A DNA stretch of 64,000 nucleotides from Paludibacteraceae bacterium (GTDB taxonomy: Bacteria; Bacteroidota; Bacteroidia; Bacteroidales; Paludibacteraceae), in contig JAZNJI010000002.1 of assembly GCA_045577965.1 (NCBI GenBank), positions 4,323 through 68,322 on the forward strand, written 5' to 3'. The position numbers were made by a program, and so were the translations under genes. Each line of letters opens with the position of its first letter. Positions within the stretch are counted from its first letter, which is position 1. Shown here in pieces: positions 3,959 through 57,149 of this stretch. The notes below the pieces were generated by a model. That model saw only the letters and a program-made list of their open reading frames with translations, was not told the origin of the DNA and did no database searches.

Positions 3959-3993
3959 ATACACAGGAAATTGATGAGAAAATAAAGGTGCAG

Positions 3994-4062
3994 TTTCTGC
4001 GGTTATTGCGGTTTTAGCGGTTTTTGGAAAACCGCAATAACCGCAGAAACCGCTAAAACCGC
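3994..4062. terminator. long hairpin immediately after the DUF3987-like gene
   Basis: tttctgcggttattgcggtttt (3994-4015) pairs with aaaaccgcaataaccgcagaaa (4028-4049). An alternative pairing is gcggttttagcgg/ccgctaaaaccgc. Confidence 0.7.
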
Positions 4063-8133: not shown

Positions 8134-9195
8134 ATGAAACGAAATATAGCCATTATAGCAGGAGGAGATAGCTCCGAATACGAGGTATCGCTGCGTAGCG
8201 CAGCGGGCATAGAGTCTTTTCTTGCTGACCAACAACAATACACCACTACCATCGTTCTCCTACAAGGTAACGATTGGAAAGCAAAAGTAAGCGAAAACGA
8301 GTGGGCTGAGATAGATAAGAATGATTTTTCGTACACCTACAACGGAGTTAAGCACAGCTTTGACTTCGCCTATATCACCATCCACGGCACACCCGGCGAG
8401 AATGGCGTACTGCAGGGCTACCTGGACATGATTGGTCTCCCCTACTCTTGCTGCGGTGTTTTGGCAGCTGCCATGACCTTCAATAAATACACTTGTAATC
8501 ACTATTTGAAGGGCTTTGGTATAAAAGTGGCGGAGAGTGTTTTGCTGCGCAAAGAGGCGATGAGGCGATTAGGCGATAAGGCGATAGGCGAAGATATTAT
8601 TGAGCAAGTGGGATTACCATGCTTCATTAAGACCAATGTGGGTGGTTCGTCCTTCGGTGTGACCAAAGTGAAGACCTTGGAGGAAGTGAAGCCTGCTATT
8701 GAGAAAGCATTTGCAGAAGGCGATGAGGTGATTTGCGAGGCATTTATGAAGGGTATTGAAATCACTTGCGGCGCATATAAGACCAAAGACAAAGCGGTTG
8801 CCTTTCCTATTACTGAAGTAGTGACTAGCAACGAGTTCTTTGATTACGATGCCAAATACAATGGTCAGGTGGACGAAATCACCCCTGCACGCATACCTGA
8901 TGAAGTACGCGATGCGGTGCAAGCCATGACATTGAAGATCTACGATATCCTCGGCTGCAAAGGCATTATTCGTGTGGATTATATATTAACTAGTTTAGAG
9001 GACGGCACTAAGTGCCTACAGGACGGCTGCGCCTACAGTTTAGAGGCGAAAGGCATGGAGATTAACCTCCTAGAGGTGAATACCACACCAGGTATGACCG
9101 CTACCTCCTTCATCCCACAGCAAGTGCGCGCAGCAGGATTGAATATTGGCCAGGTACTGAGTGAAATTATAGAGGACGCCGCAGAGCGGCTATAG
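8134..9195 (+). CDS. ddl: D-alanine--D-alanine ligase
   Basis: MKRNIAIIAGGDSSEYEVSLRSA, ATP-grasp blocks and LLEVNTTPGMTATSFIPQQ are present. The start was chosen 27 nt after a TAATTTTG box; the track start at 8077 lies in the promoter. Confidence 0.9.
   Translation: MKRNIAIIAGGDSSEYEVSLRSAAGIESFLADQQQYTTTIVLLQGNDWKAKVSENEWAEIDKNDFSYTYNGVKHSFDFAYITIHGTPGENGVLQGYLDMIGLPYSCCGVLAAAMTFNKYTCNHYLKGFGIKVAESVLLRKEAMRRLGDKAIGEDIIEQVGLPCFIKTNVGGSSFGVTKVKTLEEVKPAIEKAFAEGDEVICEAFMKGIEITCGAYKTKDKAVAFPITEVVTSNEFFDYDAKYNGQVDEITPARIPDEVRDAVQAMTLKIYDILGCKGIIRVDYILTSLEDGTKCLQDGCAYSLEAKGMEINLLEVNTTPGMTATSFIPQQVRAAGLNIGQVLSEIIEDAAERL
8554..8593 (+). repeat. possible in-frame word array inside ddl
   Basis: gaggcgat gaggcgat taggcgat aaggcgat aggcgaag encodes ..EAMRRLGDKAIGE.. 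in a linker that is shorter in the Ddl sequences I remember. Confidence 0.55.
8991..9056 (+). repeat. in-frame word-array/mini-hairpin insertion inside ddl
   Basis: 66 nt: agtttagaggacggcactaagtgcctacaggacggctgcgcctacagtttagaggcgaaaggcatg. It encodes SLEDGTKCLQDGCAYSLEAKGM just before the conserved LLEVNTTPG, and near-identical units occur in intergenic DNA at 9196-9221 and 5692-5717. Confidence 0.8.
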
Positions 9196-9297: not shown

Positions 9298-10233
9298 ATG
9301 GATATAAATAAAGAGATACTTAATCTGGATTGGAAGCGTGAGCCATATGGCTTGTACGAACCTATCGAATATACCTTGGCGGCAGGCGGCAAGCGCGTGC
9401 GCCCACAGTTGGCGATGATTGCTAGTCAGATGTTTGGAGGCAAAGATGAAGAAGTGCTGCCTGCGGCATTGGCCTTGGAGGTATTCCATAACTTCACTCT
9501 CCTGCACGACGATGTGATGGACAAAGCGGATGTGCGTCGTAGTCGTCCAACCGTACATGTCAAGTGGAACGAGAACACCGCCATCCTGTCGGGTGATCAA
9601 ATGGTGATTGAAGCATACAAGTTGCTATCGGGTGTTCCCACCGACAAACTGCCAAAAGTATTGCAACTCTTCAACAAAATGGCGACAGAGATATGCGAGG
9701 GGCAGCAATACGATGTGGATTTTGAGAGTCAGGAGCACGTAACCATAGAAGAGTATCTCAAAATGATTCGTCTGAAAACCTCCGTACTACTAGCCAATGC
9801 ACTGCAAACAGGAGCATATATTGCTGGTGCAGATGATCAAGCACAAGAAACTCTGTATCAATTTGGTATCAACATCGGACTAGCCTTTCAAATACAAGAT
9901 GATATCCTAGATGTATGGGGCGACCCTAAAACATTCGGAAAAGCCGTTGGAGGTGATATCAGTTGCAATAAGAAGACGTTTGTATATCTAGAGGCGAAAA
10001 GGCGAGGAGGCGAGAGGCTAGAAGAATGGTACAGTCAAGTGCTAGAAGACAATACGGAGAAGATTGCAGCTGTAAAAGAGATATTTGAGCAACTAGAAGT
10101 GCGTGCGGTGTGCGAAAAGGTGGTTGAAGATTATACTCAAAAAGCACTTGCATTACTGGACCAACTACCTCAAAACGAAGCTACTGAGCAATTGCGTCAG
10201 CTTGCCAATAAACTCACCACCCGAAAGGATTAA
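9298..10233 (+). CDS. polyprenyl diphosphate synthase (short/medium chain, FPP/GGPP-type)
   Basis: First Asp-rich motif LLHDDVMDKADVRR and second motif QIQDDILDV are present. Confidence 0.85.
   Translation: MDINKEILNLDWKREPYGLYEPIEYTLAAGGKRVRPQLAMIASQMFGGKDEEVLPAALALEVFHNFTLLHDDVMDKADVRRSRPTVHVKWNENTAILSGDQMVIEAYKLLSGVPTDKLPKVLQLFNKMATEICEGQQYDVDFESQEHVTIEEYLKMIRLKTSVLLANALQTGAYIAGADDQAQETLYQFGINIGLAFQIQDDILDVWGDPKTFGKAVGGDISCNKKTFVYLEAKRRGGERLEEWYSQVLEDNTEKIAAVKEIFEQLEVRAVCEKVVEDYTQKALALLDQLPQNEATEQLRQLANKLTTRKD
9989..10021 (+). repeat. array-like segment inside the polyprenyl synthase gene
   Basis: tagaggcgaaaaggcgaggaggcgagaggctag resembles the aggcgaaaggcga words at 9280-9296 and 33904-33939. 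It is unclear whether this is an insertion or a replacement. Confidence 0.4.
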
Positions 10234-26965: not shown

Positions 26966-27511
26966 ATGAATACACCAGAGCAATTTGATATTGTGGCAGG
27001 TAAATGCCGCCGCATATATGGCCTCAAGATGAAGGACTACGGACCTAGTTGGCGCATTATGCGTCCACAAACGGTCAACGATCAACTATTTATCAAAGCC
27101 AAACGTGTTCGCGAGATTGAGCTAACAGGCGTCAACATGGTAGGCGAAAGCATCGAAGGAGAAATGATGGCTATCGTCAATTATAGCATCATCGGACTCA
27201 TCCAATTGCACGAGGGATTTGCCGATTCTGTAGATATGACCGCTGAGCGAGCTATTGAGCTATACGATCACTATATGGCAGAGGCTAAGGCGCTGATGCT
27301 CAAGAAGAATCACGACTACGGAGAAGCATGGCGTGATATGTTTGCATCCAGCCTAACGGATATCATCCTCACCAAGATTAATCGCAATAAGTCCATTACT
27401 GCCAACGATAATCAGACGCTGATTTCCGAAGGGGCAGATGGCAATTATTTCGACATGCTCAACTATGCAGTATTTTACCTCATAAAAGTAATGGAAAATG
27501 AAACGCGCTAA
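26966..27511 (+). CDS. DUF1599-like protein
   Basis: 181 aa. The call rests on the recalled Bacteroidales arrangement DUF1599 - DoxX-like membrane protein - tpiA. Confidence 0.55.
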   Translation: MNTPEQFDIVAGKCRRIYGLKMKDYGPSWRIMRPQTVNDQLFIKAKRVREIELTGVNMVGESIEGEMMAIVNYSIIGLIQLHEGFADSVDMTAERAIELYDHYMAEAKALMLKKNHDYGEAWRDMFASSLTDIILTKINRNKSITANDNQTLISEGADGNYFDMLNYAVFYLIKVMENETR

Positions 27512-28646
27512 AACTATCATGGCCGCTTTCAGTCGTACGCTGTTGGGCCTAGTATTTATCTTCTCAGGAGCGGTTAAGGCGATTGATCCTCTGGGAACGG
27601 TTTATAAAATTGAGGACTACCTCAAAGCTTTCGGTGGATTCTTCACCGACTTATTACCTGCAGCGGAAGCAGCAGCATGGATCTTAATCATACTGGAACT
27701 GATGCTTGGAGTATGCATGGTATTAAATGTTCGTACAAAATGGACATCATGGATTGCACTACTATTCTACTGCGTAATGACTCCGCTAACGCTATATATC
27801 GCTCTCACCAACCCGGTGAGTGATTGCGGATGCTTTGGTGATGCGATTGTATTAACCAATTGGCAAACATTCTGGAAGAATGTCGTACTAATTATTTTGG
27901 CTATCCTATTAGTAATCTTGCGCAAAAGCACACGTCCACTCTGGCGTGGATGGATGGAACTAGTGATTGCCGCTACTACTATCGCTGCTGCTATCTCCTT
28001 CATGACATGGACAAAACAACATTTGCCAATCGCGGATTTTCGCCCATATAAAGTTGGTAATCACCTGCCTACCATTATGGAGGATTACGAACCAGATCAA
28101 TACGAATATACGTATATTTGTGCGAAAGATAGTATCGAACAGGCATTTACTGCTGAAAATTATCCGGATAGCACATGGACCCTCGTTCGCTACGAGTCCA
28201 AACTGATCAAGAAGGGGTACGATTCGCCTATTCACGATCTAGAGATCATCAACACATACGGGGATGATCTTACATGGGATATCCTAGAGAGCGAAGAGCC
28301 TGTGACGCTGGTCATCATGTACGACCTAACTAAAACAGATAAATCACAAATGGCGAAGGTAGAGGCATTGTATAGCAGCCTAGCACAATCCTATACCACC
28401 CCTGTAGATACTATACAATCCGACACAACACTATACGATACTACACCAGATTATACCACACCTTTCTATATCATCACAGGTTCTAGCGACGAGGTAAGCA
28501 CATTTGCCCAGGAATACCCTACATTGGGCGAATGCATTTGTACGTGCGACCCTGTCACTTTGAAGACTATTGTACGCGCAAACCCAGGTGTGATTGTCCT
28601 ACAAAATGGTACCGTCATTGACAAATATAATATCAGGAATAGATAA
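27498..28646 (+). CDS. DoxX-domain membrane protein with C-terminal extracytoplasmic domain (BT_3928-like)
   Basis: Four N-terminal TM helices are present. 14-nt overlap with the upstream gene. It carries an in-frame word array at 28386-28462. Confidence 0.6.
   Translation: MKRAKTIMAAFSRTLLGLVFIFSGAVKAIDPLGTVYKIEDYLKAFGGFFTDLLPAAEAAAWILIILELMLGVCMVLNVRTKWTSWIALLFYCVMTPLTLYIALTNPVSDCGCFGDAIVLTNWQTFWKNVVLIILAILLVILRKSTRPLWRGWMELVIAATTIAAAISFMTWTKQHLPIADFRPYKVGNHLPTIMEDYEPDQYEYTYICAKDSIEQAFTAENYPDSTWTLVRYESKLIKKGYDSPIHDLEIINTYGDDLTWDILESEEPVTLVIMYDLTKTDKSQMAKVEALYSSLAQSYTTPVDTIQSDTTLYDTTPDYTTPFYIITGSSDEVSTFAQEYPTLGECICTCDPVTLKTIVRANPGVIVLQNGTVIDKYNIRNR
28386..28462 (+). repeat. in-frame G-poor word array inside the DoxX-like gene
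   Basis: caatcctataccacccctgtagatactatacaatccgacacaacactatacgatactacaccagattataccacacc encodes QSYTTPVDTIQSDTTLYDTTPDYTTP. Confidence 0.7.
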
Positions 28647-32211: not shown

Positions 32212-32300
32212 CCCATATTAGGCGAAGCCGTCCAATACCCATTAGGCGGAACGCCGTCCATTACCCATTAGGCGAAGCCGTCCAATAGCGAAGCGTCCAC
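32212..32300. repeat. word-array / mini-hairpin repeat
   Basis: attaggcgaagccgtccaataccc attaggcggaacgccgtccattaccc attaggcgaagccgtccaatagc gaagcgtcc. Confidence 0.85.
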
Positions 32301-33000: not shown

Positions 33001-33168
33001 TTGTTGTAGCGCTGTGTAGCGGTTGTGTAGTAGCGCTGCGCGCTGTGTAGCAGTTGTGTAGGGTTGTGTAGCAGTTGTTATTCTAGGATTCCATCCTATA
33101 CCACTCTATACCACCCTATACCATGCTATACCATCCTACACCATCCTATACCATCCTACACCATCCCC
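33001..33168. repeat. inverted word arrays (gtgtag words, then ctatacc/ctacacc words) with hairpin agcgctgcgcgct
   Basis: A C-poor half (33001-33090) is followed by a G-free half (33095-33168), between the kinase and peptidase genes. Confidence 0.85.
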
Positions 33169-34202
33169 CTCTGGGCGACCTCTGCCGCCTCCACATTCGG
33201 CAGACAGTCCAGATGATAGCATTTCACATGCGTGATCACGTGCTTGATGCTCTCGTACATGCAGTCGGCCATCTGTCGGTCCATTTTCAGTCCCGACGCC
33301 GATGACAGCATATACGCATATGCCTCTGGCAGTGAGAGGATTCGCATCTTATTATGCGGTGCCTGACTCAGTTTGATGATTCCTCCTACGCGTGCGCACG
33401 CATTCTTGTAGCAAGGTGTCTTGCCGCTCCATGGCGAACCATAGACGCGCACTTCACCGTCCTCCATCACGCGCAAGATTGGATTGTCGTCGTTGAGCAG
33501 CCATGCGTCATCGAAGGCCGCCAACCACTGCCGCGCATGCGTGGACTTACCCGTCCCGCTATGCCCCAAAAACAAGTACCCTTTCGCCTCGTCCCTCACC
33601 ACCACCGCAGCGTGCATCTCTAGGGTCATCAGTGGGGCGGTGCGGAAAGCAAATAGCAGCATCAGCGCATTGTCGATGCAGAACCTAACATCCTGACAAT
33701 CAGGCATTATGTATAGCACACCTTCCGTAAAATTCTCACTACATTCCATCTCGCAGCAGATAGGCGCGTTGGCCACCATCGCCACGCGGAACAACCAAGT
33801 GTGTGGTATAGGGTTGTTTAGGGTTGTATAGGATTGTGAAGAGTGGTACACTTCGATCCTAGGCATATCTTCCTCTGCATTATCGGTCAGCACATGGGTC
33901 CACTCCTCGCCTATTTGCCTTTCGCCTTTCGCCTCTTCCATTTCCACGCTGAGCGTGAAGATAGGAGTTGAATGCTTCTCGCATTCCATATCTTTGTCGC
34001 GGCAGGGAGTTCTTATCTCACTTTCGTTCGAACGATCTGCTTCGCCGTACGATTGCCGCGAAATGTTGTCTATATTGTCGTTGTTATTTATCTCCACGGC
34101 AAATGGCAGATAATTCGTCATACATGACAACAGCGCACCGTCGCTGCATTCCACAGCGAACAGATGCTCCGCTACGCGGTAGTATGTACGACTAAACGCC
34201 AT
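33156..34202 (-). CDS. HPr-kinase-like P-loop kinase (HprK-related)
   Basis: YLFLGHSGTGKSTHARQW P-loop within an HprK C-terminal-like fold. The start MAFSRTYYRV lies 21 nt after a TACTTTTG box. It contains two in-frame word arrays. Confidence 0.7.
   Translation of the reverse strand: MAFSRTYYRVAEHLFAVECSDGALLSCMTNYLPFAVEINNNDNIDNISRQSYGEADRSNESEIRTPCRDKDMECEKHSTPIFTLSVEMEEAKGERQIGEEWTHVLTDNAEEDMPRIEVYHSSQSYTTLNNPIPHTWLFRVAMVANAPICCEMECSENFTEGVLYIMPDCQDVRFCIDNALMLLFAFRTAPLMTLEMHAAVVVRDEAKGYLFLGHSGTGKSTHARQWLAAFDDAWLLNDDNPILRVMEDGEVRVYGSPWSGKTPCYKNACARVGGIIKLSQAPHNKMRILSLPEAYAYMLSSASGLKMDRQMADCMYESIKHVITHVKCYHLDCLPNVEAAEVAQRGMV
33801..33850 (-). repeat. in-frame word array inside the HprK-like gene
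   Basis: Plus strand gtgtggtatagggttgtttagggttgtataggattgtgaagagtggtaca encodes ..YHSSQSYTTLNNPIPHT.. on the minus strand. Confidence 0.7.
33904..33939 (-). repeat. in-frame word array inside the HprK-like gene
   Basis: Plus strand tcctcgcctatttgcctttcgcctttcgcctcttcc encodes ..EEAKGERQIGEE.. on the minus strand. Confidence 0.65.
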
Positions 34203-34222
34203 TGTGCAGTTGAAATTTTCTG

Positions 34223-34230
34223 CAAAAGTA
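34223..34230 (-). promoter_or_regulatory. -7 box TACTTTTG for the kinase-peptidase-PqqD-NTase operon
   Basis: 21 nt before ATG 34202. No room for an upstream ORF. Confidence 0.7.
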
Positions 34231-34304
34231 GCAAAAAATACGCACATACGCAAATAAATTCAAAGAAACTCTCATTTTCCTTTGCATATTTGCAAAAAAA
34301 GCCG

Positions 34305-42240: not shown

Positions 42241-42310
42241 TAGGATATTTAGGAAATTTAGGAATTTCGGGAATTTAATTTCCTAAAATTCCTAAAATTC
42301 CTAATGTTCC
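42241..42310. repeat. palindromic word array
   Basis: taggatatttaggaaatttaggaatttcgggaattt-aa-tttcctaaaattcctaaaattcctaatgttcc. Confidence 0.85.
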
Positions 42311-43716: not shown

Positions 43717-44117
43717 TTGGATTTGCTACGAAAATAGAAGATTTGAGGATATGGCAAAATGCTCGTACTATCAGTAAAGCTATATACAGCCTCACTTACC
43801 ATGATAACTTTGAGAAAGATTATCGCTTTGTACAACAAATTCGCGCCGCTGCAGGATCTATAATGGATAATATTGCAGAAGGATTCGGAAGAAGTGGAAG
43901 CAAAGAATTTATACAATTTCTTTATATTGCAAGAGGCTCTTGCCAAGAAGTTATTAGCCAACTATACCGTGCATGGGATATTCAATATATTTCTGAGGAA
44001 GAATTCACAGAAACTAAAAAACAGGTCGAGACAACTTCTGTTATGATTTATAACCTAATAGATAATCTCAAGCAATCAGAAAACAAAGGTCCCAAGTACA
44101 GCCCTACACCCCACTAA
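43713..44117 (+). CDS. four-helix-bundle protein (23S rRNA IVS protein / Avd-like family)
   Basis: IEDLRIWQNA...FVQQIRAAAGSIMDNIAEGFGRSGSKEFIQFLYIARGSCQEV is the family signature. A paralog lies at 62361-62762. Confidence 0.8.
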   Translation: MVGFATKIEDLRIWQNARTISKAIYSLTYHDNFEKDYRFVQQIRAAAGSIMDNIAEGFGRSGSKEFIQFLYIARGSCQEVISQLYRAWDIQYISEEEFTETKKQVETTSVMIYNLIDNLKQSENKGPKYSPTPH

Positions 44118-44251
44118 ACCACCCTATACAACCCTACACAGCGCGAAGCGCTACTAAACAACCCTATACAATACTACACAGCGCAAAGCGCTACTAAACA
44201 ACCCTAAACAACCCTACACAACCCTATACAACCCTATACAACCCTATACAA
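44103..44251. repeat. G-free word array with two GCGAAGC-type mini-hairpins downstream of four-helix-bundle gene 1
   Basis: ccctataca/ccctacaca words plus agcgcgaagcgct and agcgcaaagcgct. It runs up to the frr ATG. Confidence 0.9.
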
Positions 44252-44949: not shown

Positions 44950-46077
44950 TTGGCTATCCCAATGTCTCATGCTATTTCGCTAGATAGCCTGCTTAACCTG
45001 CCCGCTATGGGCATACCTGTCATCAACTACTCACCCGAATCAACATGGGAGTTTGGCGCCGCAGCGCAAGGCTACTTCCGCCTGCCCAACCAAGAGCGTA
45101 CCTCCATCGTGCAACTCGATGGTACCTACTCGCTCAACCACCAGTGGTATATCAATGCGCAAGGGACGCTGTATTTCGGGAATCGGGAGTCCGAAGTCCG
45201 GAATAAAGGAGTAAGCTCTTGGCAACTGCAATTCCGCGCCGGCTATAGCGACCGACCAGCCACCTACTACGGCATCTACCACGACTCCCACTTTGCCAAC
45301 GAAGGCAACACCGGCATCGGCATGCTGCGTCAGGGAACACCCTACCAACTGCAGCGCGGCTATCTCAATATCCAAACACCGATCTATGTGGGCAAAAACA
45401 TAGCTGTCGGGCCAATGGCAGACATGCTCATCGCACGATTCAGCATCCAGGACACCTACACCACCGTCAATCCGCTAGTGCAACTGGCACTGGGTGCTGT
45501 AGCCCAATACGACTCGCGAGACAATGTCTTCTACCCTACCAAGGGTATCTTTGCCAAAGTCACCGCAGCCGCCGCATATACCAACCAGATAGACATACCC
45601 CAAGGACAACAAGCCACCGTCAATGGCCTACTATCTGCTGATTTGCGACACTATGTACCATTGCCCTGTGACCTCGTCTTTGCTTGGCAATTCAAGGCAC
45701 AACTGATGCTATCACCATACCACATCTCCCACCTCACCCTCTACCCTATGCTTCCACGCCTAGGCGGACAAGACGGTATTAGAGGTATCAATAGCGACAT
45801 GTTTCGCGACGACATCATGCTCGCTCTCCAAGCCGAGCTCCGCATACCCATCTGGAGTATCTTCCGCGCCGCTGTATTCGCAGGCATAGGCGATGTGTAC
45901 GACTACCACAACTGGCACTGGGCTGTGCCCAAAGTGGGCTATGGACTCGGACTAAGAGCCGCCATCAACAAAGCCAAAGTAAACATCCGCTTCGACATAG
46001 CCCGCAGCAACATTGACCCACGATGGAATAATATCAATGCCTACAGTTTCTACCTCACCGCCACCGAAGCATTTTAA
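44950..46077 (+). CDS. Omp85/BamA-family outer-membrane beta-barrel protein; start codon uncertain
   Basis: Beta-barrel strands and the terminal aromatic ...YSFYLTATEAF are present. The frame is open upstream to 44905 and encodes a signal-peptide-like KRSLILTIAWALAIPMSHA, but no ATG, GTG or TTG precedes it. Confidence 0.6.
   Translation: MAIPMSHAISLDSLLNLPAMGIPVINYSPESTWEFGAAAQGYFRLPNQERTSIVQLDGTYSLNHQWYINAQGTLYFGNRESEVRNKGVSSWQLQFRAGYSDRPATYYGIYHDSHFANEGNTGIGMLRQGTPYQLQRGYLNIQTPIYVGKNIAVGPMADMLIARFSIQDTYTTVNPLVQLALGAVAQYDSRDNVFYPTKGIFAKVTAAAAYTNQIDIPQGQQATVNGLLSADLRHYVPLPCDLVFAWQFKAQLMLSPYHISHLTLYPMLPRLGGQDGIRGINSDMFRDDIMLALQAELRIPIWSIFRAAVFAGIGDVYDYHNWHWAVPKVGYGLGLRAAINKAKVNIRFDIARSNIDPRWNNINAYSFYLTATEAF
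45177..45209 (+). repeat. array-like segment inside the Omp85-like gene
   Basis: cgggaatcgggagtccgaagtccggaataaagg shares gaatcgggagtc words with the intergenic segment at 23871-23892. Confidence 0.45.
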
Positions 46078-46122
46078 CCACACTACACAATATTGAACAA
46101 CGTTGAACCATTTTGAACCAAC
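46078..46122. repeat. word array
   Basis: ccacactacacaatattgaacaacgttgaaccattttgaaccaac. The ttgaac words also occur at 62.3-62.8 kb. Confidence 0.75.
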
Positions 46123-46126
46123 TTTT

Positions 46127-47119
46127 ATGCGAGGACTAGTTATAAAATCTACTGGTACGAGTTACGGCGTACACTTCGAGGACGGAACAACCGCCGAATG
46201 TCATGTCAAGGGCAATTTCCGCATTCGTGGTATTCGCTCTACTAACCCTATTGCCATAGGCGACCATGTTGAGGTGACGCAACTAGAGGACGGTACCAAT
46301 TGGATCACCGAACTATACGACCGCAAAAACTACATCATCCGCCGCTCCACCAACCTGAGCTATGCCTCACATATCATAGCAGCCAATGTAGATATGGCGG
46401 CATTGATCGTCACACTCCGTCACCCCGAGACATCAACCACCTTTATTGATCGCTTCCTAGCGACCTGCGAAGCTTATCGCGTGCCCGCGTGCATAATATT
46501 TAATAAGGTGGATCTGCTCACCGAAGATGAACTGGAGCAACTATCTACCCTCCGCCAATTATACGAGTCATTGGGCTATCCTACCTACGCTATCTCTGCA
46601 ATAACCCTCACTTCTTCGCCTGATAGCCCAATCGCCCAATCGCCTAATCACCTCATCTCTGCCATCTTTGATGGCAAAGTTACTCTCCTCTCTGGCAATT
46701 CTGGCGTAGGAAAATCTACCCTTTTGAACGCCATTTTAGGCAAAGATGTTGCTCGAACAGGCGCCATCTCCTCTGCCCACCACAAGGGTATGCACACCAC
46801 CACCTTCTCCGAGATGTACCCGCTACACAACACTACACAACACTACACAACACTACACAACACTACCCCACATTCCTGGCTCATCGACACCCCAGGCATC
46901 AAGGGATTTGGTCTGCTAGACATTGAAAAAGAGGAAGTAGGGCACTATTTCCGAGAGATTTTTGAGGTAGCACGCGAATGCCGCTACTCCAACTGCTTGC
47001 ACACGGGCGAGCCTGGATGTGCGGTATATCAAGCAGTGGTAGATGGCAAGATCGCCCTCTCACGCTACGAGAGTTACCTCAGTATCCTAGACGACACCAA
47101 CGAAGGGAAGTATCGTTGA
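46127..47119 (+). CDS. rsgA: ribosome small-subunit-dependent GTPase A
   Basis: OB-fold N terminus, NKVDL, GNSGVGKSTLLNAI, DTPG and Zn knuckle CRYSNCLHTGEPGCAV are present. It contains two in-frame word arrays. Confidence 0.88.
   Translation: MRGLVIKSTGTSYGVHFEDGTTAECHVKGNFRIRGIRSTNPIAIGDHVEVTQLEDGTNWITELYDRKNYIIRRSTNLSYASHIIAANVDMAALIVTLRHPETSTTFIDRFLATCEAYRVPACIIFNKVDLLTEDELEQLSTLRQLYESLGYPTYAISAITLTSSPDSPIAQSPNHLISAIFDGKVTLLSGNSGVGKSTLLNAILGKDVARTGAISSAHHKGMHTTTFSEMYPLHNTTQHYTTLHNTTPHSWLIDTPGIKGFGLLDIEKEEVGHYFREIFEVARECRYSNCLHTGEPGCAVYQAVVDGKIALSRYESYLSILDDTNEGKYR
46614..46652 (+). repeat. in-frame word array inside rsgA
   Basis: cttcgcctgatagcccaatcgcccaatcgcctaatcacc encodes SSPDSPIAQSPNH. 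Confidence 0.7.
46823..46869 (+). repeat. in-frame 10-nt-period word array inside rsgA
   Basis: The unit ctacacaaca is repeated 4 times, followed by ctacccc. It encodes LHNTTQHYTTLHNTTP between the conserved HTTT..E and IDTPG blocks. Confidence 0.85.
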
Positions 47120-47827: not shown

Positions 47828-47910
47828 CCCATATCTATAACCTATAGCCCAAAGGGCGTCCTATAGGCGCCTCGCGCCGTCCTATAGCGGCTCTGCCGCG
47901 TCCTCTAAAC
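47828..47910. repeat. word-array / mini-hairpin repeat
   Basis: ccatatctataacctatagcccaaagggcgtc ctataggcgcctcgcgccgtc ctatagcggctctgccgcgtcc tctaaac. It is an inverted match to 3890-3916. Confidence 0.85.
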
Positions 47911-48139: not shown

Positions 48140-48186
48140 AGATGCAAAAAAAATAATGACTATTTGCATAAATGCAAAAAAAATAC

Positions 48187-48194
48187 TACCTTTG
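48187..48194 (+). promoter_or_regulatory. -7 box TACCTTTG for recA
   Basis: Preceded by tttgcataaatgcaaaaaaaa. The leader is a G-poor word array. Confidence 0.75.
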
Positions 48195-48206
48195 CAGTCG
48201 CGTTAG

Positions 48207-48255
48207 TAATACAACGCTACACAACACAACACTAACCATTCTAAACAACACTACT
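48207..48255. repeat. G-poor word array forming the recA leader
   Basis: taatacaacgctacacaacacaacactaaccattctaaacaacactact, followed directly by ATG. Confidence 0.8.
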
Positions 48256-49263
48256 ATGGCTGAAGAAAAGAAAAATCCGTCCGTAGAGAAACTCAAGGCA
48301 TTGCAACTCGCAATGGAAAAAATTGATAAGCAATTTGGTAAAGGCGCCATCATGAAATTGGGTGATGACAAAGTAGAAGATGTACCTGTAATACCATCTG
48401 GTTCAGTAGGTCTCAACGTCGCACTCGGCGTAGGCGGTTACCCTCGCGGACGTATCGTAGAGATTTATGGTCCAGAGTCTTCTGGTAAAACCACCCTCGC
48501 CATCCATGCTATGGCAGAGGTGCAAAAGCAAGGCGGTATCGCTGCTATCATCGATGCCGAGCACGCATTCGACCGCTTCTATGCAGAGAAACTAGGAGTC
48601 AACACCAACGACTTGCTCATCGCCCAACCAGACTGCGGCGAGCAAGCACTCGACATTGCAGACGAACTCATCCGCAGTGCGGCAGTGGACCTTGTAGTCA
48701 TCGACTCTGTAGCTGCCCTCACCCCAAAAGCTGAGATTGAAGGCGATATGGGCGACAACAAAGTGGGTCTGCATGCGCGACTCATGTCGCAAGCGCTCCG
48801 CAAACTGACAGCTACCATCAACAAGACCAACACCACCTGTATCTTTATTAACCAGTTGCGTGAAAAGATTGGCGTGATGTTTGGTAACCCAGAGACCACA
48901 ACGGGTGGTAACGCGCTGAAGTTCTATGCTTCAGTTCGCCTCGACATTCGCAAATCTACCGCTATTAAGGACGGAGACGAGATTCTTGGTAACCAAGTTC
49001 GCGTGAAAGTCATCAAGAATAAGGTGGCTCCTCCATTCAAGAAAGCGGAGTTCGACCTCATGTTCAACGAAGGTATCTCTCGCGTAGGCGAACTCGTGGA
49101 TATGGGTGTAGAGAAAGGTGTCTTGACCAAGTCTGGCTCATGGTATAGCTACGAGGGCAACAAACTTGCTCAAGGTCGCGATGCGGCTAAGAACGTTCTC
49201 CGCGACAACCCAGACCTCGCCGAAGAGATCGAGAACAAGATCATGGAAGCGCTGAAGAAATAG
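48256..49263 (+). CDS. recA: recombinase RecA
   Basis: [29 protein letters not shown] and [28 protein letters not shown] are present. The track start at 48172 runs through the promoter and a word array. Confidence 0.96.
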
Positions 49264-49440
49264 TCGCTGAGCGACGTAAATGGCGGCAAAGCCGCGAAAA
49301 TGGTCTTCGACGAAAATGGCACCTCTGGTACGAAAATGGTCTTCGACGTAAATTACGTGAAACCACTTTCGTGAGCAAAGCGAGCCACTTTCATGAACGA
49401 AGTGAATCACTTTCGTGAGCGATAGCGAACCATTTAACAT
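49264..49440. repeat. word-array / hairpin repeat downstream of recA
   Basis: The palindrome gtcgctgagcgac, (g)aaaatgg words and cactttcgtgagc..agcga units are present. It is related to 29451-29640. Confidence 0.85.
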
Positions 49441-51031
49441 GAACGAAGTGAACCAAACAACTCTCATATTATCCCCTGAGAAAGCTTACGACGCGGAGCA
49501 ACGCTACCGCGTCGTAAAGCGTTCTATTGATGCCCGCCAGCGTGCGCTCAAGGTCCACCTCACCGTACTTACCGACGAGCATGGTGCACCACTGCCCAAG
49601 GATGCACCTATCCCGCTGTACGAGCCACCACATTTCCAAGATGTACACAACGCCGAGCATAGTGTGGCTATCATCGGCGCAGGCCCGGCGGGCCTATTTG
49701 CTGCGCTCACGCTCATTGAACACGGCATCCGTCCAATCATCTACGAGCGTGGTAAAGAGGTTGCTGAGCGCAAGAAGGACATCGCCACGCTCAACCGTAA
49801 TCAGGGGCTGAATGCCGAGTCCAACTACTGCTTTGGCGAAGGCGGTGCAGGTACTTTCTCCGATGGCAAACTCTTCTCACGTAGCAAGAAACGCGGCAAT
49901 ATGCAACGCGTCATGGAGCTCTTCCACCATTTCGGTGGTGACGACCGCCTATTGTATGAAGCCCATGCCCATATCGGTAGCGACCGCCTGCCCACCATCA
50001 TCCGCCGCATGCGCGAGTGCATCCTCGAACATGGTGGCGAGATCCACTTCTCTACCTGCGTAGATGAACAACTCTTCCGTAGCCTTATCGCCAATAGCCA
50101 ATATCCAATAGGCGGAACGCCGTCCAATAGCCCGTTAGGGCGTCCTGCCCTCTTGGGCGTCATCCTCGCCATTGGTCACTCCGCACATGATACCTACCAC
50201 ATGCTGCATGCCAACGGTGTTGCCCTGGCAACAAAAGGTTTCGCTATGGGCGTGCGCGCAGAGCACCCACAGGCGCTGATCAATAAACTGATGTACCACG
50301 ATCCATCGCCCGAACTCATCCGTTTGGTAGGCAATGCTTCGTATTCGTTGGTGACGCAGGTGCAAGGTCGTGGTGTTTATTCCTTCTGTATGTGCCCAGG
50401 CGGACATATCGTCCCAGCAGGCAGTGCGCTGAATAGTTGTGTAGTTAATGGTATGTCTGCCAGCCACCGCAACTCTCCATACGCCAATTCGGGTATGGTC
50501 GTAGAAATTCGTCCCGAAGACTTGCTCGTCAATAACAATACTACACCACACTACACAATTCTACACCATACTACCCCTGCTCTTGCAGGCCTAACATTCC
50601 AGCAAGAGCTCGAACGCCTTGCCTTTGAATACGGTGGCGAACCATCCTTAGCTCCTGCTCAACGCTTACGCGATTTCGTGGAGGGCAAGGCAAGTAAGAC
50701 GCTACCTGCATGTAGCTATCTGCCAGGCACGGTGTCCAGCCGCCTTGACCAATGGTTACCCGAACATATCGGCAAACGCTTGCAACAGGGATTCCGCGAT
50801 TTCGACCGCAAATATCGAGGTTTCTTGACCAACGAAGCCGTTATCCTTGGCGTAGAGAGCCGCAGTAGTAGCGCTGTGCGTATTCCTCGCGATCCCGAGA
50901 CACTGCAATCTATATCCACGCCTCACCTTTATCCTTGTGGTGAAGGAGCAGGCTACGCAGGCGGCATCACCTCCTCCGCACTCGACGGCATCAATGTCGC
51001 CCTCAAAATCGCCGAACGCATTACCCACTAA
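49439..51031 (+). CDS. FAD-dependent oxidoreductase (COG2509-like)
   Basis: VAIIGAGPAGLFAAL dinucleotide fold and CFGEGGAGTFSDGKL are present. It contains two in-frame word arrays. The track start at 49415 lies in an array. Confidence 0.75.
   Translation: MNEVNQTTLILSPEKAYDAEQRYRVVKRSIDARQRALKVHLTVLTDEHGAPLPKDAPIPLYEPPHFQDVHNAEHSVAIIGAGPAGLFAALTLIEHGIRPIIYERGKEVAERKKDIATLNRNQGLNAESNYCFGEGGAGTFSDGKLFSRSKKRGNMQRVMELFHHFGGDDRLLYEAHAHIGSDRLPTIIRRMRECILEHGGEIHFSTCVDEQLFRSLIANSQYPIGGTPSNSPLGRPALLGVILAIGHSAHDTYHMLHANGVALATKGFAMGVRAEHPQALINKLMYHDPSPELIRLVGNASYSLVTQVQGRGVYSFCMCPGGHIVPAGSALNSCVVNGMSASHRNSPYANSGMVVEIRPEDLLVNNNTTPHYTILHHTTPALAGLTFQQELERLAFEYGGEPSLAPAQRLRDFVEGKASKTLPACSYLPGTVSSRLDQWLPEHIGKRLQQGFRDFDRKYRGFLTNEAVILGVESRSSSAVRIPRDPETLQSISTPHLYPCGEGAGYAGGITSSALDGINVALKIAERITH
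50084..50145 (+). repeat. in-frame word-array/mini-hairpin insertion inside the FAD oxidoreductase gene
   Basis: cttatcgccaatagccaatatccaataggcggaacgccgtccaatagcccgttagggcgtcc uses the same words as the intergenic array at 32212-32300. Confidence 0.8.
50530..50577 (+). repeat. in-frame G-free word array inside the FAD oxidoreductase gene
   Basis: caataacaatactacaccacactacacaattctacaccatactacccc encodes NNNTTPHYTILHHTTP. Confidence 0.8.
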
Positions 51032-51112
51032 CCACCCTACGCAACACAACACTACACTATACTACCCTACACTACACTATACTACACCACACTACACAAT
51101 ACTACACAACCC
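51030..51112. repeat. G-free word array forming the tcdA leader
   Basis: accaccctacgcaacacaacactacactatactaccctacactacactatactacaccacactacacaatactacacaaccc. Confidence 0.9.
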
Positions 51113-57100: not shown

Positions 57101-57149
57101 TACAATACTACACCACTCTAAACAACACTACACTATCCTACACAACCCC
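57101..57149. repeat. G-free word array forming the serS leader
   Basis: tacaatactacaccactctaaacaacactacactatcctacacaacccc, followed by ATG. Confidence 0.85.

Follow-up and report, generated by a model that had tools for sequence, protein, structure and literature searches.

The rsgA gene at positions 46127-47119 of a 64,000-nucleotide stretch of Paludibacteraceae DNA (the window, by which we mean the whole of that stretch) carries a perfect tandem array of a 10-nt unit within its coding sequence. Among relatives of this organism the array is found with two, three, four or five units and, because the unit is 10 nt long, only two or five of them give a full-length RsgA. We consider it probable, with moderate confidence, that this array is a hypermutable coding microsatellite, a by-product of short word arrays that occur genome-wide, which is tolerated both by a permissive protein loop and by the gene that encodes it. 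The landmarks of the open reading frame (ORF) are:

46127..47119, plus strand: rsgA (ribosome small-subunit-dependent GTPase A), 330 aa, in the ON (in-frame) state.
46502..46513, plus strand: G4 motif NKVD in the translation, preceding G1.
46616..46657, plus strand: degenerate 8-nt word array (TCGCCTNA / CCCAATCG) encoding SPDSPIAQSPNHLI, in the loop ahead of the beta strand running into the P-loop.
46694..46717, plus strand: G1 / P-loop GNSGVGKS in the translation, its positions invariant in an alignment of relatives.
46793..46804, plus strand: G2 / switch I HTTT in the translation, aligning to the T250/T251 region of E. coli RsgA (PMC5499641).
46823..46872, plus strand: decanucleotide array of four perfect CTACACAACA units (46823-46862) and, directly after them, the terminal variant unit CTACCCCACA (46863-46872), encoding LHNTTQHYTTLHNTTPH.
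46886..46897, plus strand: G3 motif DTPG (start of switch II), out of the reading frame in three- and four-unit alleles.
46979..47020, plus strand: zinc-finger motif CRYSNCLHTGEPGC (residues 285-298), 3' of the decamer array and missing from OFF products.

Tandem Repeats Finder (TRF) reports the tract at 46823-46866 with a period of 10, 4.4 copies, 100% matches and the consensus CTACACAACA. A first-pass annotation of this DNA had described a clean 10-nt repeat, read in three frames and placed between the G-domain blocks HTTT and DTPG; the TRF result, the translation across the array (PLHNTTQHYTTLHNTTPHSW, with the unit read in all three phases) and the coordinates above all agree with that description. 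The array is thus a perfect tandem tract inside an ORF with a unit length that is not divisible by 3, as is characteristic of phase-variable loci. Glycosylation, through NTT/NxT sequons or the Bacteroidetes D(S/T)x O-glycosylation motif, was considered as an explanation for the encoded peptide, and was dropped by reasoning alone because the protein is cytoplasmic and its insert peptide merely results from reading the DNA unit in three phases.

We gathered orthologous loci comprising 80 genome loci, 69 metagenome loci and 10 further contigs, with relatives found by a tblastn-confirmed scan of metagenome contigs and truncated RsgA products found by listing the members of 90%-identity protein clusters. 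Two narrower searches came back empty: an exact-flank, variable-gap pattern scan of the metagenome contigs gave 0 matches, the pattern being too strict, and a protein search with two out-of-frame tails gave 0 matches because the truncated products sit inside 90% clusters, out of sight of such a search. The nearest genomes belong to uncultured Paludibacteraceae and are metagenome-assembled genomes (MAGs) from the guts of ruminants and other herbivores. In the aligned DNA the array takes four lengths:

Two units, in frame: L002-4.
Three units, frameshifted: L031, L152 and L153.
Four units, frameshifted: L044, L156, L157 and L158.
Five units, in frame: the window, L001, L136, L150, L151, L154, L155 and L159.

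With two, three, four and five units all observed in relatives, the repeat number is not invariant. The segment between G2 and G3 measures 75 nt with two units and 105 nt with five, and both in-frame lengths occur within a single 90% cluster (P0204 with two units, P0210 with five). While the two- and five-unit alleles have products of 319-330 aa, those with three or four units have DTPG in a different frame, terminate early and are left with 256-272 aa that lack G3/switch II and the zinc finger, the rest of the ORF being intact in the shifted frame. Read from these natural alleles, a change in array length switches the predicted product between full-length and truncated forms. The frameshifted state is found at the DNA level on 7 contigs from 7 samples, and an eighth such allele is known only as a protein. 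The OFF alleles come from sister lineages and include L156, in which both the unit CTACACAACA and the terminal unit CTACCCCACA are those of the window but the array is shorter by one unit; every known 4+1-unit allele from the window's lineage is ON.

Several ON and OFF alleles differ in nothing but the array. L155 (ON) and L152 (OFF) align over 3470 nt with 0 substitutions and a single 20-nt deletion in the array, and the same 20-nt deletion separates L151 (ON) from L153 (OFF), again with 0 substitutions in rsgA, on a backbone that is 43 substitutions away from that of L155 and L152. A third pair, L159 (ON) and L157 (OFF), is identical over 5781 nt apart from one 10-nt unit. Array differences therefore exist between alleles without any point substitution, and repeat-number polymorphism between otherwise identical strains is present in sister lineages of the window rather than in the window's own strain. 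These frameshifted natural alleles, whose backgrounds are otherwise the same as those of ON alleles, bear out the potential on/off switch proposed in the first-pass annotation.

Frameshifts are also confined to perfect tracts. Among the 142 alleles with DNA, 4 of the 14 whose perfect non-triplet tract reaches 25 nt or more are OFF compared with 0 of the 128 others, a count that covers four of the OFF alleles and includes some alleles fetched on purpose; in the unbiased subset only, 2 of 7 perfect-tract alleles are OFF against 0 of 128 (p = 0.002). Clusters P0034 (degenerate arrays) and P0003 (another insert type) are uniform in length among the members listed, and lineages with a 21-nt unit (10 + 11) change in in-frame steps, 87 versus 108 nt. 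This pattern is as expected of, and most likely reflects, slipped-strand mispairing filtered by the reading frame, a mechanism that we infer from the alleles.

The gene had been taken for rsgA at the outset, and this assignment is secure. Its product scores 184.4 bits against TIGR00157, where the curated family threshold is 100, and matches the PDB entries 1u0l, 2yv5, 2rcn and 5no2 with E-values of 1e-37 to 1e-41; PF03193 and PF16745 are annotated on its close homologs, and the exact protein is present in NCBI on a 71.8-kb contig. The motifs follow the order G4-G1-G2-G3 and then the zinc finger, which is that of circularly permuted GTPases, and CRYSNCLHTGEPGC fits the C-terminal zinc-finger pattern Cx(F/Y)xxCxHxx(E/D)xxC (PMC9032327). 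By family score, structural matches and permuted motif order, the product of 46127-47119 is an RsgA/YjeQ circularly permuted GTPase. It shares its domain order (OB fold, circularly permuted GTPase with G4-G1-G2-G3, zinc finger) with the RsgA/YjeQ proteins of E. coli, Salmonella, T. maritima, A. aeolicus and B. subtilis (5no2, 2rcn, 1u0l, 2yv5, 1t9h), and all of its motifs are intact. It departs from these structures in having ~13 extra residues at the tip of the β12/β13 hairpin and ~10 extra residues ahead of the P-loop strand, both of them encoded by DNA repeats. In pairwise alignments to 1u0l, 2yv5 and 2rcn the decamer segment falls in a 13-residue gap and the 8-nt word array in an insertion of ~10 aa, so that both arrays are lineage-specific insertions relative to solved RsgA structures.

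The insert was placed in the protein from PDB sequence alignments together with the structural account of E. coli RsgA, in which the β12/β13 hairpin lies between the G2 threonine T250 and the G3 glycine G269 (PMC5499641). On binding of the 30S subunit this hairpin shifts with the OB domain and the β6/7 hairpin by 6.4 Å and 22 degrees, carrying G3/switch II to the γ-phosphate and closing the GTP pocket (PMC5499641). Because the element between G2 and G3 is β12/13, the decamer insert would sit at the turn of a mechanically relevant hairpin.

While the first-pass annotation called RsgA essential, it is not so where tested, since yjeQ/yloQ knockouts are viable but slow-growing in model bacteria (PMC9032327). 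The three- and four-unit products presumably represent null alleles, and, because RsgA is not essential in model bacteria, cells in the OFF state are plausibly viable. A walk between two and five units through null intermediates fits the presence of all four states in nature. Rescue of the OFF alleles as a split protein was ruled out as a general explanation because 5 of the 7 have no start codon 5' of DTPG in the shifted frame, and a two-piece protein is hence not generally possible. As to programmed ribosomal frameshifting, visual inspection of the array showed no canonical slippery heptamer; in the three-unit alleles the frame might be restored by +1 slippage at CCC-U at a low level.

The rsgA array is one of many in this genome. 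In the window (1-64000), 32 arrays with periods of 7-12 are detected at a TRF score of at least 40 compared with 0-1 in dinucleotide shuffles, and these arrays cover 7.7% of intergenic as against 0.71% of coding bases, most of them having one strongly G-poor strand. The decamer CTACACAACA, allowing at most one mismatch, occurs 29 times in the window where 4.65 are expected (0 of 100 shuffles reach 29). Its sites include 46083, 48217-48250, 51037-51111 and 57118-57147, and the recurrence of the rsgA words in named intergenic arrays, as the first-pass annotation had it, is upheld. Members of the decamer family include:

44098..44251, plus strand: large intergenic array of CTAYACAACC words of the rsgA decamer family, TRF scores 95-181.
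46078..46126, plus strand: intergenic word array directly 5' of rsgA, CTACACAAT followed by TTGAAC-type decamers.
51026..51111, plus strand: intergenic array of the rsgA decamer word family.
50535..50574, plus strand: in-frame array of the decamer family, NNTTPHYTILHHTT, in the gene for a FAD-dependent protein (49439-51031).
33806..33837, minus strand: in-frame array of the decamer family, SQSYTTLNNPIP, in ORF 33156-34247.

Three further ORFs of the window contain in-frame words of the form CTAYACNAYN, in each case in the G-poor sense direction, in which every frame is free of stop codons, and the decamer word is found in frame in rsgA, in the FAD-dependent protein (where the array is a clean 14-residue insertion in an alignment to PDB 3nlc), in ORF 33156-34247, in a MauE/DoxX protein and in the Omp85 protein of L148. 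The 8-mers of the inserts are commoner in the flanks of their own species than in those of other species at 24 of 35 loci (p = 0.003). A purely local origin of the rsgA words is disfavoured, as the same words occur across the window and in other genes; seeding in situ is still possible because L005 and L019 hold a lone CTACACAAC at the baseline loop length. A literature search found no paper mentioning tandem repeats in Paludibacteraceae.

Several further repeats were noted alongside these. In-frame arrays are present at 33806-33837 and 33907-33934 in ORF 33156-34247 (minus strand) and at 28408-28443 in the coding sequence 27498-28646, with the peptides SQSYTTLNNPIPHTW, EAKGERQIGE and DTTLYDTTPDYTT. 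The Omp85-family gene 5' of rsgA in L148 carries a CTACACAAC-type array (NHTTQPYTTLHHTTPHSW) at L148:1501-1560, which is absent from the window ortholog (44962-46077). Two intergenic arrays each pair a unit with its reverse complement, TGCGGTTTT x4 followed by AAAACCGCA x4 at 3989-4062 and TAGGAAATT followed by the array TTCCTAAAA at 42241-42304, and either pair would form a long hairpin made of repeats. The recA ORF as listed starts inside a word array (48172-48255); its true start probably lies at the ATG of position 48256 (MAEEKK), and the array would then belong to the 5' leader. Distinct from the short word arrays are longer-period intergenic repeats with units of 21-46 nt (44113-44220, 49272-49452, 32217-32287 and 47856-47904), some of which contain internal palindromes such as CAGCGCAAAGCGCT.

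Across the family, the RsgA loop has been filled in different ways. Many species have a G2-G3 segment of 63-66 nt, taken here as the baseline, while others have inserts of unrelated short repeats:

CTACACAAC decamers: the window, L001-4, L031, L044 and others.
GGAGTTYAG-type words: L014, L021, L106 and others.
AACTCTAAACTCT: L052 and L059.
GTACAAGG words: L051 and L056.
CAATGCAC x4 followed by ~70 nt that include a hairpin: the human-gut species of L110-L114.

Because unrelated inserts recur at this position, the loop appears to be a recurrent landing or expansion site for repeats across the family, and comparison of orthologs indicates that the insert residues are not conserved in related genera. 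In the human-gut loci L034, L110-L114 and L140, the insert amounts to ~100 nt, with a G+C-rich hairpin (CCCCCTCTTTGAGGGGG) after CAATGCAC x4, and is in frame in all.

The alleles are moreover mosaic, with near-identical backbones joined to different blocks of the 8-nt word insert or to different types of G2-G3 insert when P0003, P0004, P0009, P0029, P0151, P0165, P0193, P0194 and P0199 are compared with the window rsgA, and the type of decamer array (A or C at position 10 of the unit) does not track gene divergence. Such mosaicism suggests that the sequence around the two loops recombines often. In P0199 the insert is chimeric, with PIESLGDN joined to PTPSSW, and one mosaic allele has a decamer word at the site of the 8-nt word insert.

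The second loop, ahead of the P-loop, does not share the behaviour of the first. The word array noted there in the first-pass annotation is present, yet it is imperfect: at 46626-46649, ~40 nt 5' of GNSGVGKS, TRF finds a period of 8 (GCCCAATC) with 3 copies and 93% matches, encoding SPDSPIAQSPNH, and periods of both 8 and 16 are reported for the array. In relatives the segment from YAISA to TLLSG measures 51, 60, 75 or 84 nt and the whole G4-G1 segment 183-216 nt, with inserts built of TCGCCTNA / CCTCATCG words that are in frame in all alleles examined. Being degenerate and in frame in every allele examined, this array is not a switch. It is probably an older, degenerate member of a second (8-nt) word family and a tolerated loop extension. 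CCCAATCGCC, at no more than one mismatch, occurs 11 times in the window against 2.8 expected, and words of the GAGGCGAT type, the reverse complement of the rsgA 8-nt words, lie inside two other genes:

8554-8591: GAGGCGAT-type words inside Ddl.
9990-10022: GAGGCGAT-type words inside polyprenyl synthetase.

In both of these proteins the words take the place of variable segments and alter the length little or not at all; a uniform behaviour of the 8-nt family was accordingly rejected, the words in Ddl and polyprenyl synthetase not being insertions.

We interpret these observations as follows. The tract at 46823-46872 would be a hypermutable 10-nt microsatellite that encodes the tip of the β12/β13 hairpin between switch I and switch II, and which would gain or lose entire units, most likely by slipped-strand mispairing when the DNA is replicated. 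Arrays of three or four units would shift the frame and yield a product without G3/switch II and the zinc-finger domain. The ON state may be tolerated for two reasons, namely that the G-free unit is free of stops in every sense frame and that the 10-13 extra low-complexity residues would fall at a loop whose length varies widely in the family, while the OFF state may be tolerated since RsgA is dispensable in model bacteria, though its loss slows growth. As to origin, the array would be one local case of short word arrays that fill intergenic DNA genome-wide and colonise permissive protein loops; this by-product origin is suggested by the 32 arrays against 0-1 in shuffled sequence, the in-frame words elsewhere and the enrichment of insert words in their own flanks.

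Several points weigh against this interpretation. All of the sequences are consensus assemblies of MAGs or metagenomes, 0 OFF alleles were present among the 59 metagenome loci that had been gathered regardless of frame, and no OFF allele is among those nearest to the window, which is itself ON. The block at 46814-46872 (59 nt), which contains the array, is 100% identical between the window and L150 while rsgA as a whole is 77% identical. It is the longest exact run in a 9-kb syntenic region that is 76.7% identical, longer than any in recA. Such identity is not obviously predicted by a purely neutral hypermutable tract and points to concerted evolution, in which the array would contract to a conserved seed and expand again, to exchange of loop cassettes as short tracts, or to selection at the DNA level. 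In addition, the β12/13 loop may not be functionally inert given its movement with the OB domain (PMC5499641), and an AlphaFold2 model built from 47 aligned close relatives did not have the quality needed to place the inserts (mean predicted local distance difference test score, pLDDT, of 44.6).

Some of the same evidence bears on whether the tract has been selected as a contingency locus, kept perfect because reversible ON/OFF switching of RsgA yields a slow-growing or stress-tolerant subpopulation (bet-hedging). The OFF form is the assembled, and hence majority, allele in at least 7 independent samples and on at least 4 backbones with no other nearby mutation, which is unexpected for a strongly deleterious null. 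Every intermediate between the two ON lengths is observed, and a perfect array that remains the longest exact run in 9 kb of two genomes 23% diverged is what selection for mutability would give. We nonetheless regard a selected switch as a serious but less likely alternative, in view of the same kind of array in many genes and intergenic regions without sign of purpose, the many lineages with degenerate, locked-ON arrays or no insert, and the dominance of ON alleles overall. A joint reading, to which we can give only tentative credence, would have a selected, reversible rsgA switch whose repeat was seeded by an uncharacterised genome-wide array-spreading process that makes switches and loop diversity in many genes.

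We consider it improbable that the insert is instead a functional, lineage-specific β12/13 extension, for example one that contacts the 30S subunit or a partner, that is stable here and whose frameshifted relatives are dead-end pseudogenes. The mechanical coupling of this hairpin to GTPase activation (PMC5499641) would make such a role understandable, as would the recurrence of the identical peptide HNTTQHYTTLHNTTP in many alleles that are 84-91% identical overall and the retention of some insert at the G2-G3 site in many species. Those inserts, however, are unrelated in sequence, charge and length (CTACACAAC, GGAGTTYAG, CAATGCAC plus the hairpin stretch, and others), close relatives (L005, L010, P0165, P0029) have none, and the peptide is whatever a three-phase reading of the DNA repeat yields. 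Moreover, in the OFF alleles the downstream ORF is intact and further lesions are absent, and on that account they appear to be recent events rather than decayed pseudogenes. Least credible of all, and very unlikely in our judgment, is that the frameshifted alleles are assembly or sequencing artefacts in a tract that is in reality invariant: the evidence does consist entirely of short-read metagenome assemblies, in which repeats are a classic source of error, but the tract, at no more than 50 nt, is shorter than the reads and falls below the k=141 to which contig names with 'k141' point, each indel spans a whole number of units, an OFF allele seen in one sample recurs in another (L157 and L158; L152 and L153 on different backbones), ON and OFF forms (L155 and L152) come from one study and assembler, the OFF contigs derive from seven samples and more than one assembly pipeline, and control clusters with degenerate arrays are free of truncations.

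The hypermutable microsatellite that we favour can be set beside three known kinds of repeat. Contingency or phase-variable genes driven by simple sequence repeats (SSRs) are known in Haemophilus, Neisseria, Campylobacter and Helicobacter, while in Bacteroidales phase variation is known mainly by DNA inversion. Like such loci, rsgA has a perfect in-ORF tandem repeat with a unit that is not a multiple of 3, so that a whole-unit change toggles the frame, and ON and OFF alleles on otherwise identical backgrounds; on these structural features of its alleles, together with the switch they predict between full-length and truncated product, the array works like an SSR phase-variable gene. It differs in its unit of 10 nt: according to PMC4692102, phase variation is caused by SSR units of 1-5 nt, and SSRs of 6-9 nt have rarely been reported. 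The target also differs, being a cytoplasmic ribosome-assembly GTPase rather than a surface or restriction-modification gene, as does the host, an uncultured gut member of the Bacteroidales.

Rickettsia palindromic elements (RPEs), reportedly found in frame in protein-coding genes by Ogata et al. in 2000, resemble the present family in being dispersed repeats that occur both in intergenic DNA and in frame in unrelated conserved proteins at insertion-tolerant sites. RPEs are palindromic, ~100-150 bp long and non-tandem, whereas the rsgA array is a direct tandem repeat of G-free decamers, 50 nt in length, that changes in copy number and has no inverted repeat or hairpin. The hairpin insert in the rsgA loop of the human-gut loci L110-L114 and L140 is closer to the RPE picture. 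The short tandemly repeated repetitive (STRR) sequences of cyanobacteria are heptamer arrays scattered in intergenic DNA, and they are likewise numerous short, lineage-typical word arrays (units of ~7 nt); they belong to another phylum, the units here are mostly 7-11 nt with arrays also in frame in proteins, and the two are likened by description only.

Phase variation driven by repeats is well established for surface antigens and restriction systems of a few pathogens, as a rule with units of 1-5 nt and now and then slightly longer ones. What sets the present case apart is that repeat-driven mechanics of this kind are seen with a 10-nt unit, in natural gut populations and in a conserved ribosome-assembly GTPase instead of surface antigens or restriction systems. 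On a practical level, genes such as this one will appear as pseudogenes or split genes in the annotation of MAGs. The abundance of short word arrays in Paludibacteraceae genomes is itself undescribed, and its origin is now open to study with public data. If switching is selected, the array would provide a heritable and reversible way to alter ribosome maturation and growth rate. If it is not, the array would be an example of genome-wide repeat spreading that creates fragile sites in housekeeping genes, and of a non-essential gene that moves between in-frame lengths of two and five units via null intermediates.

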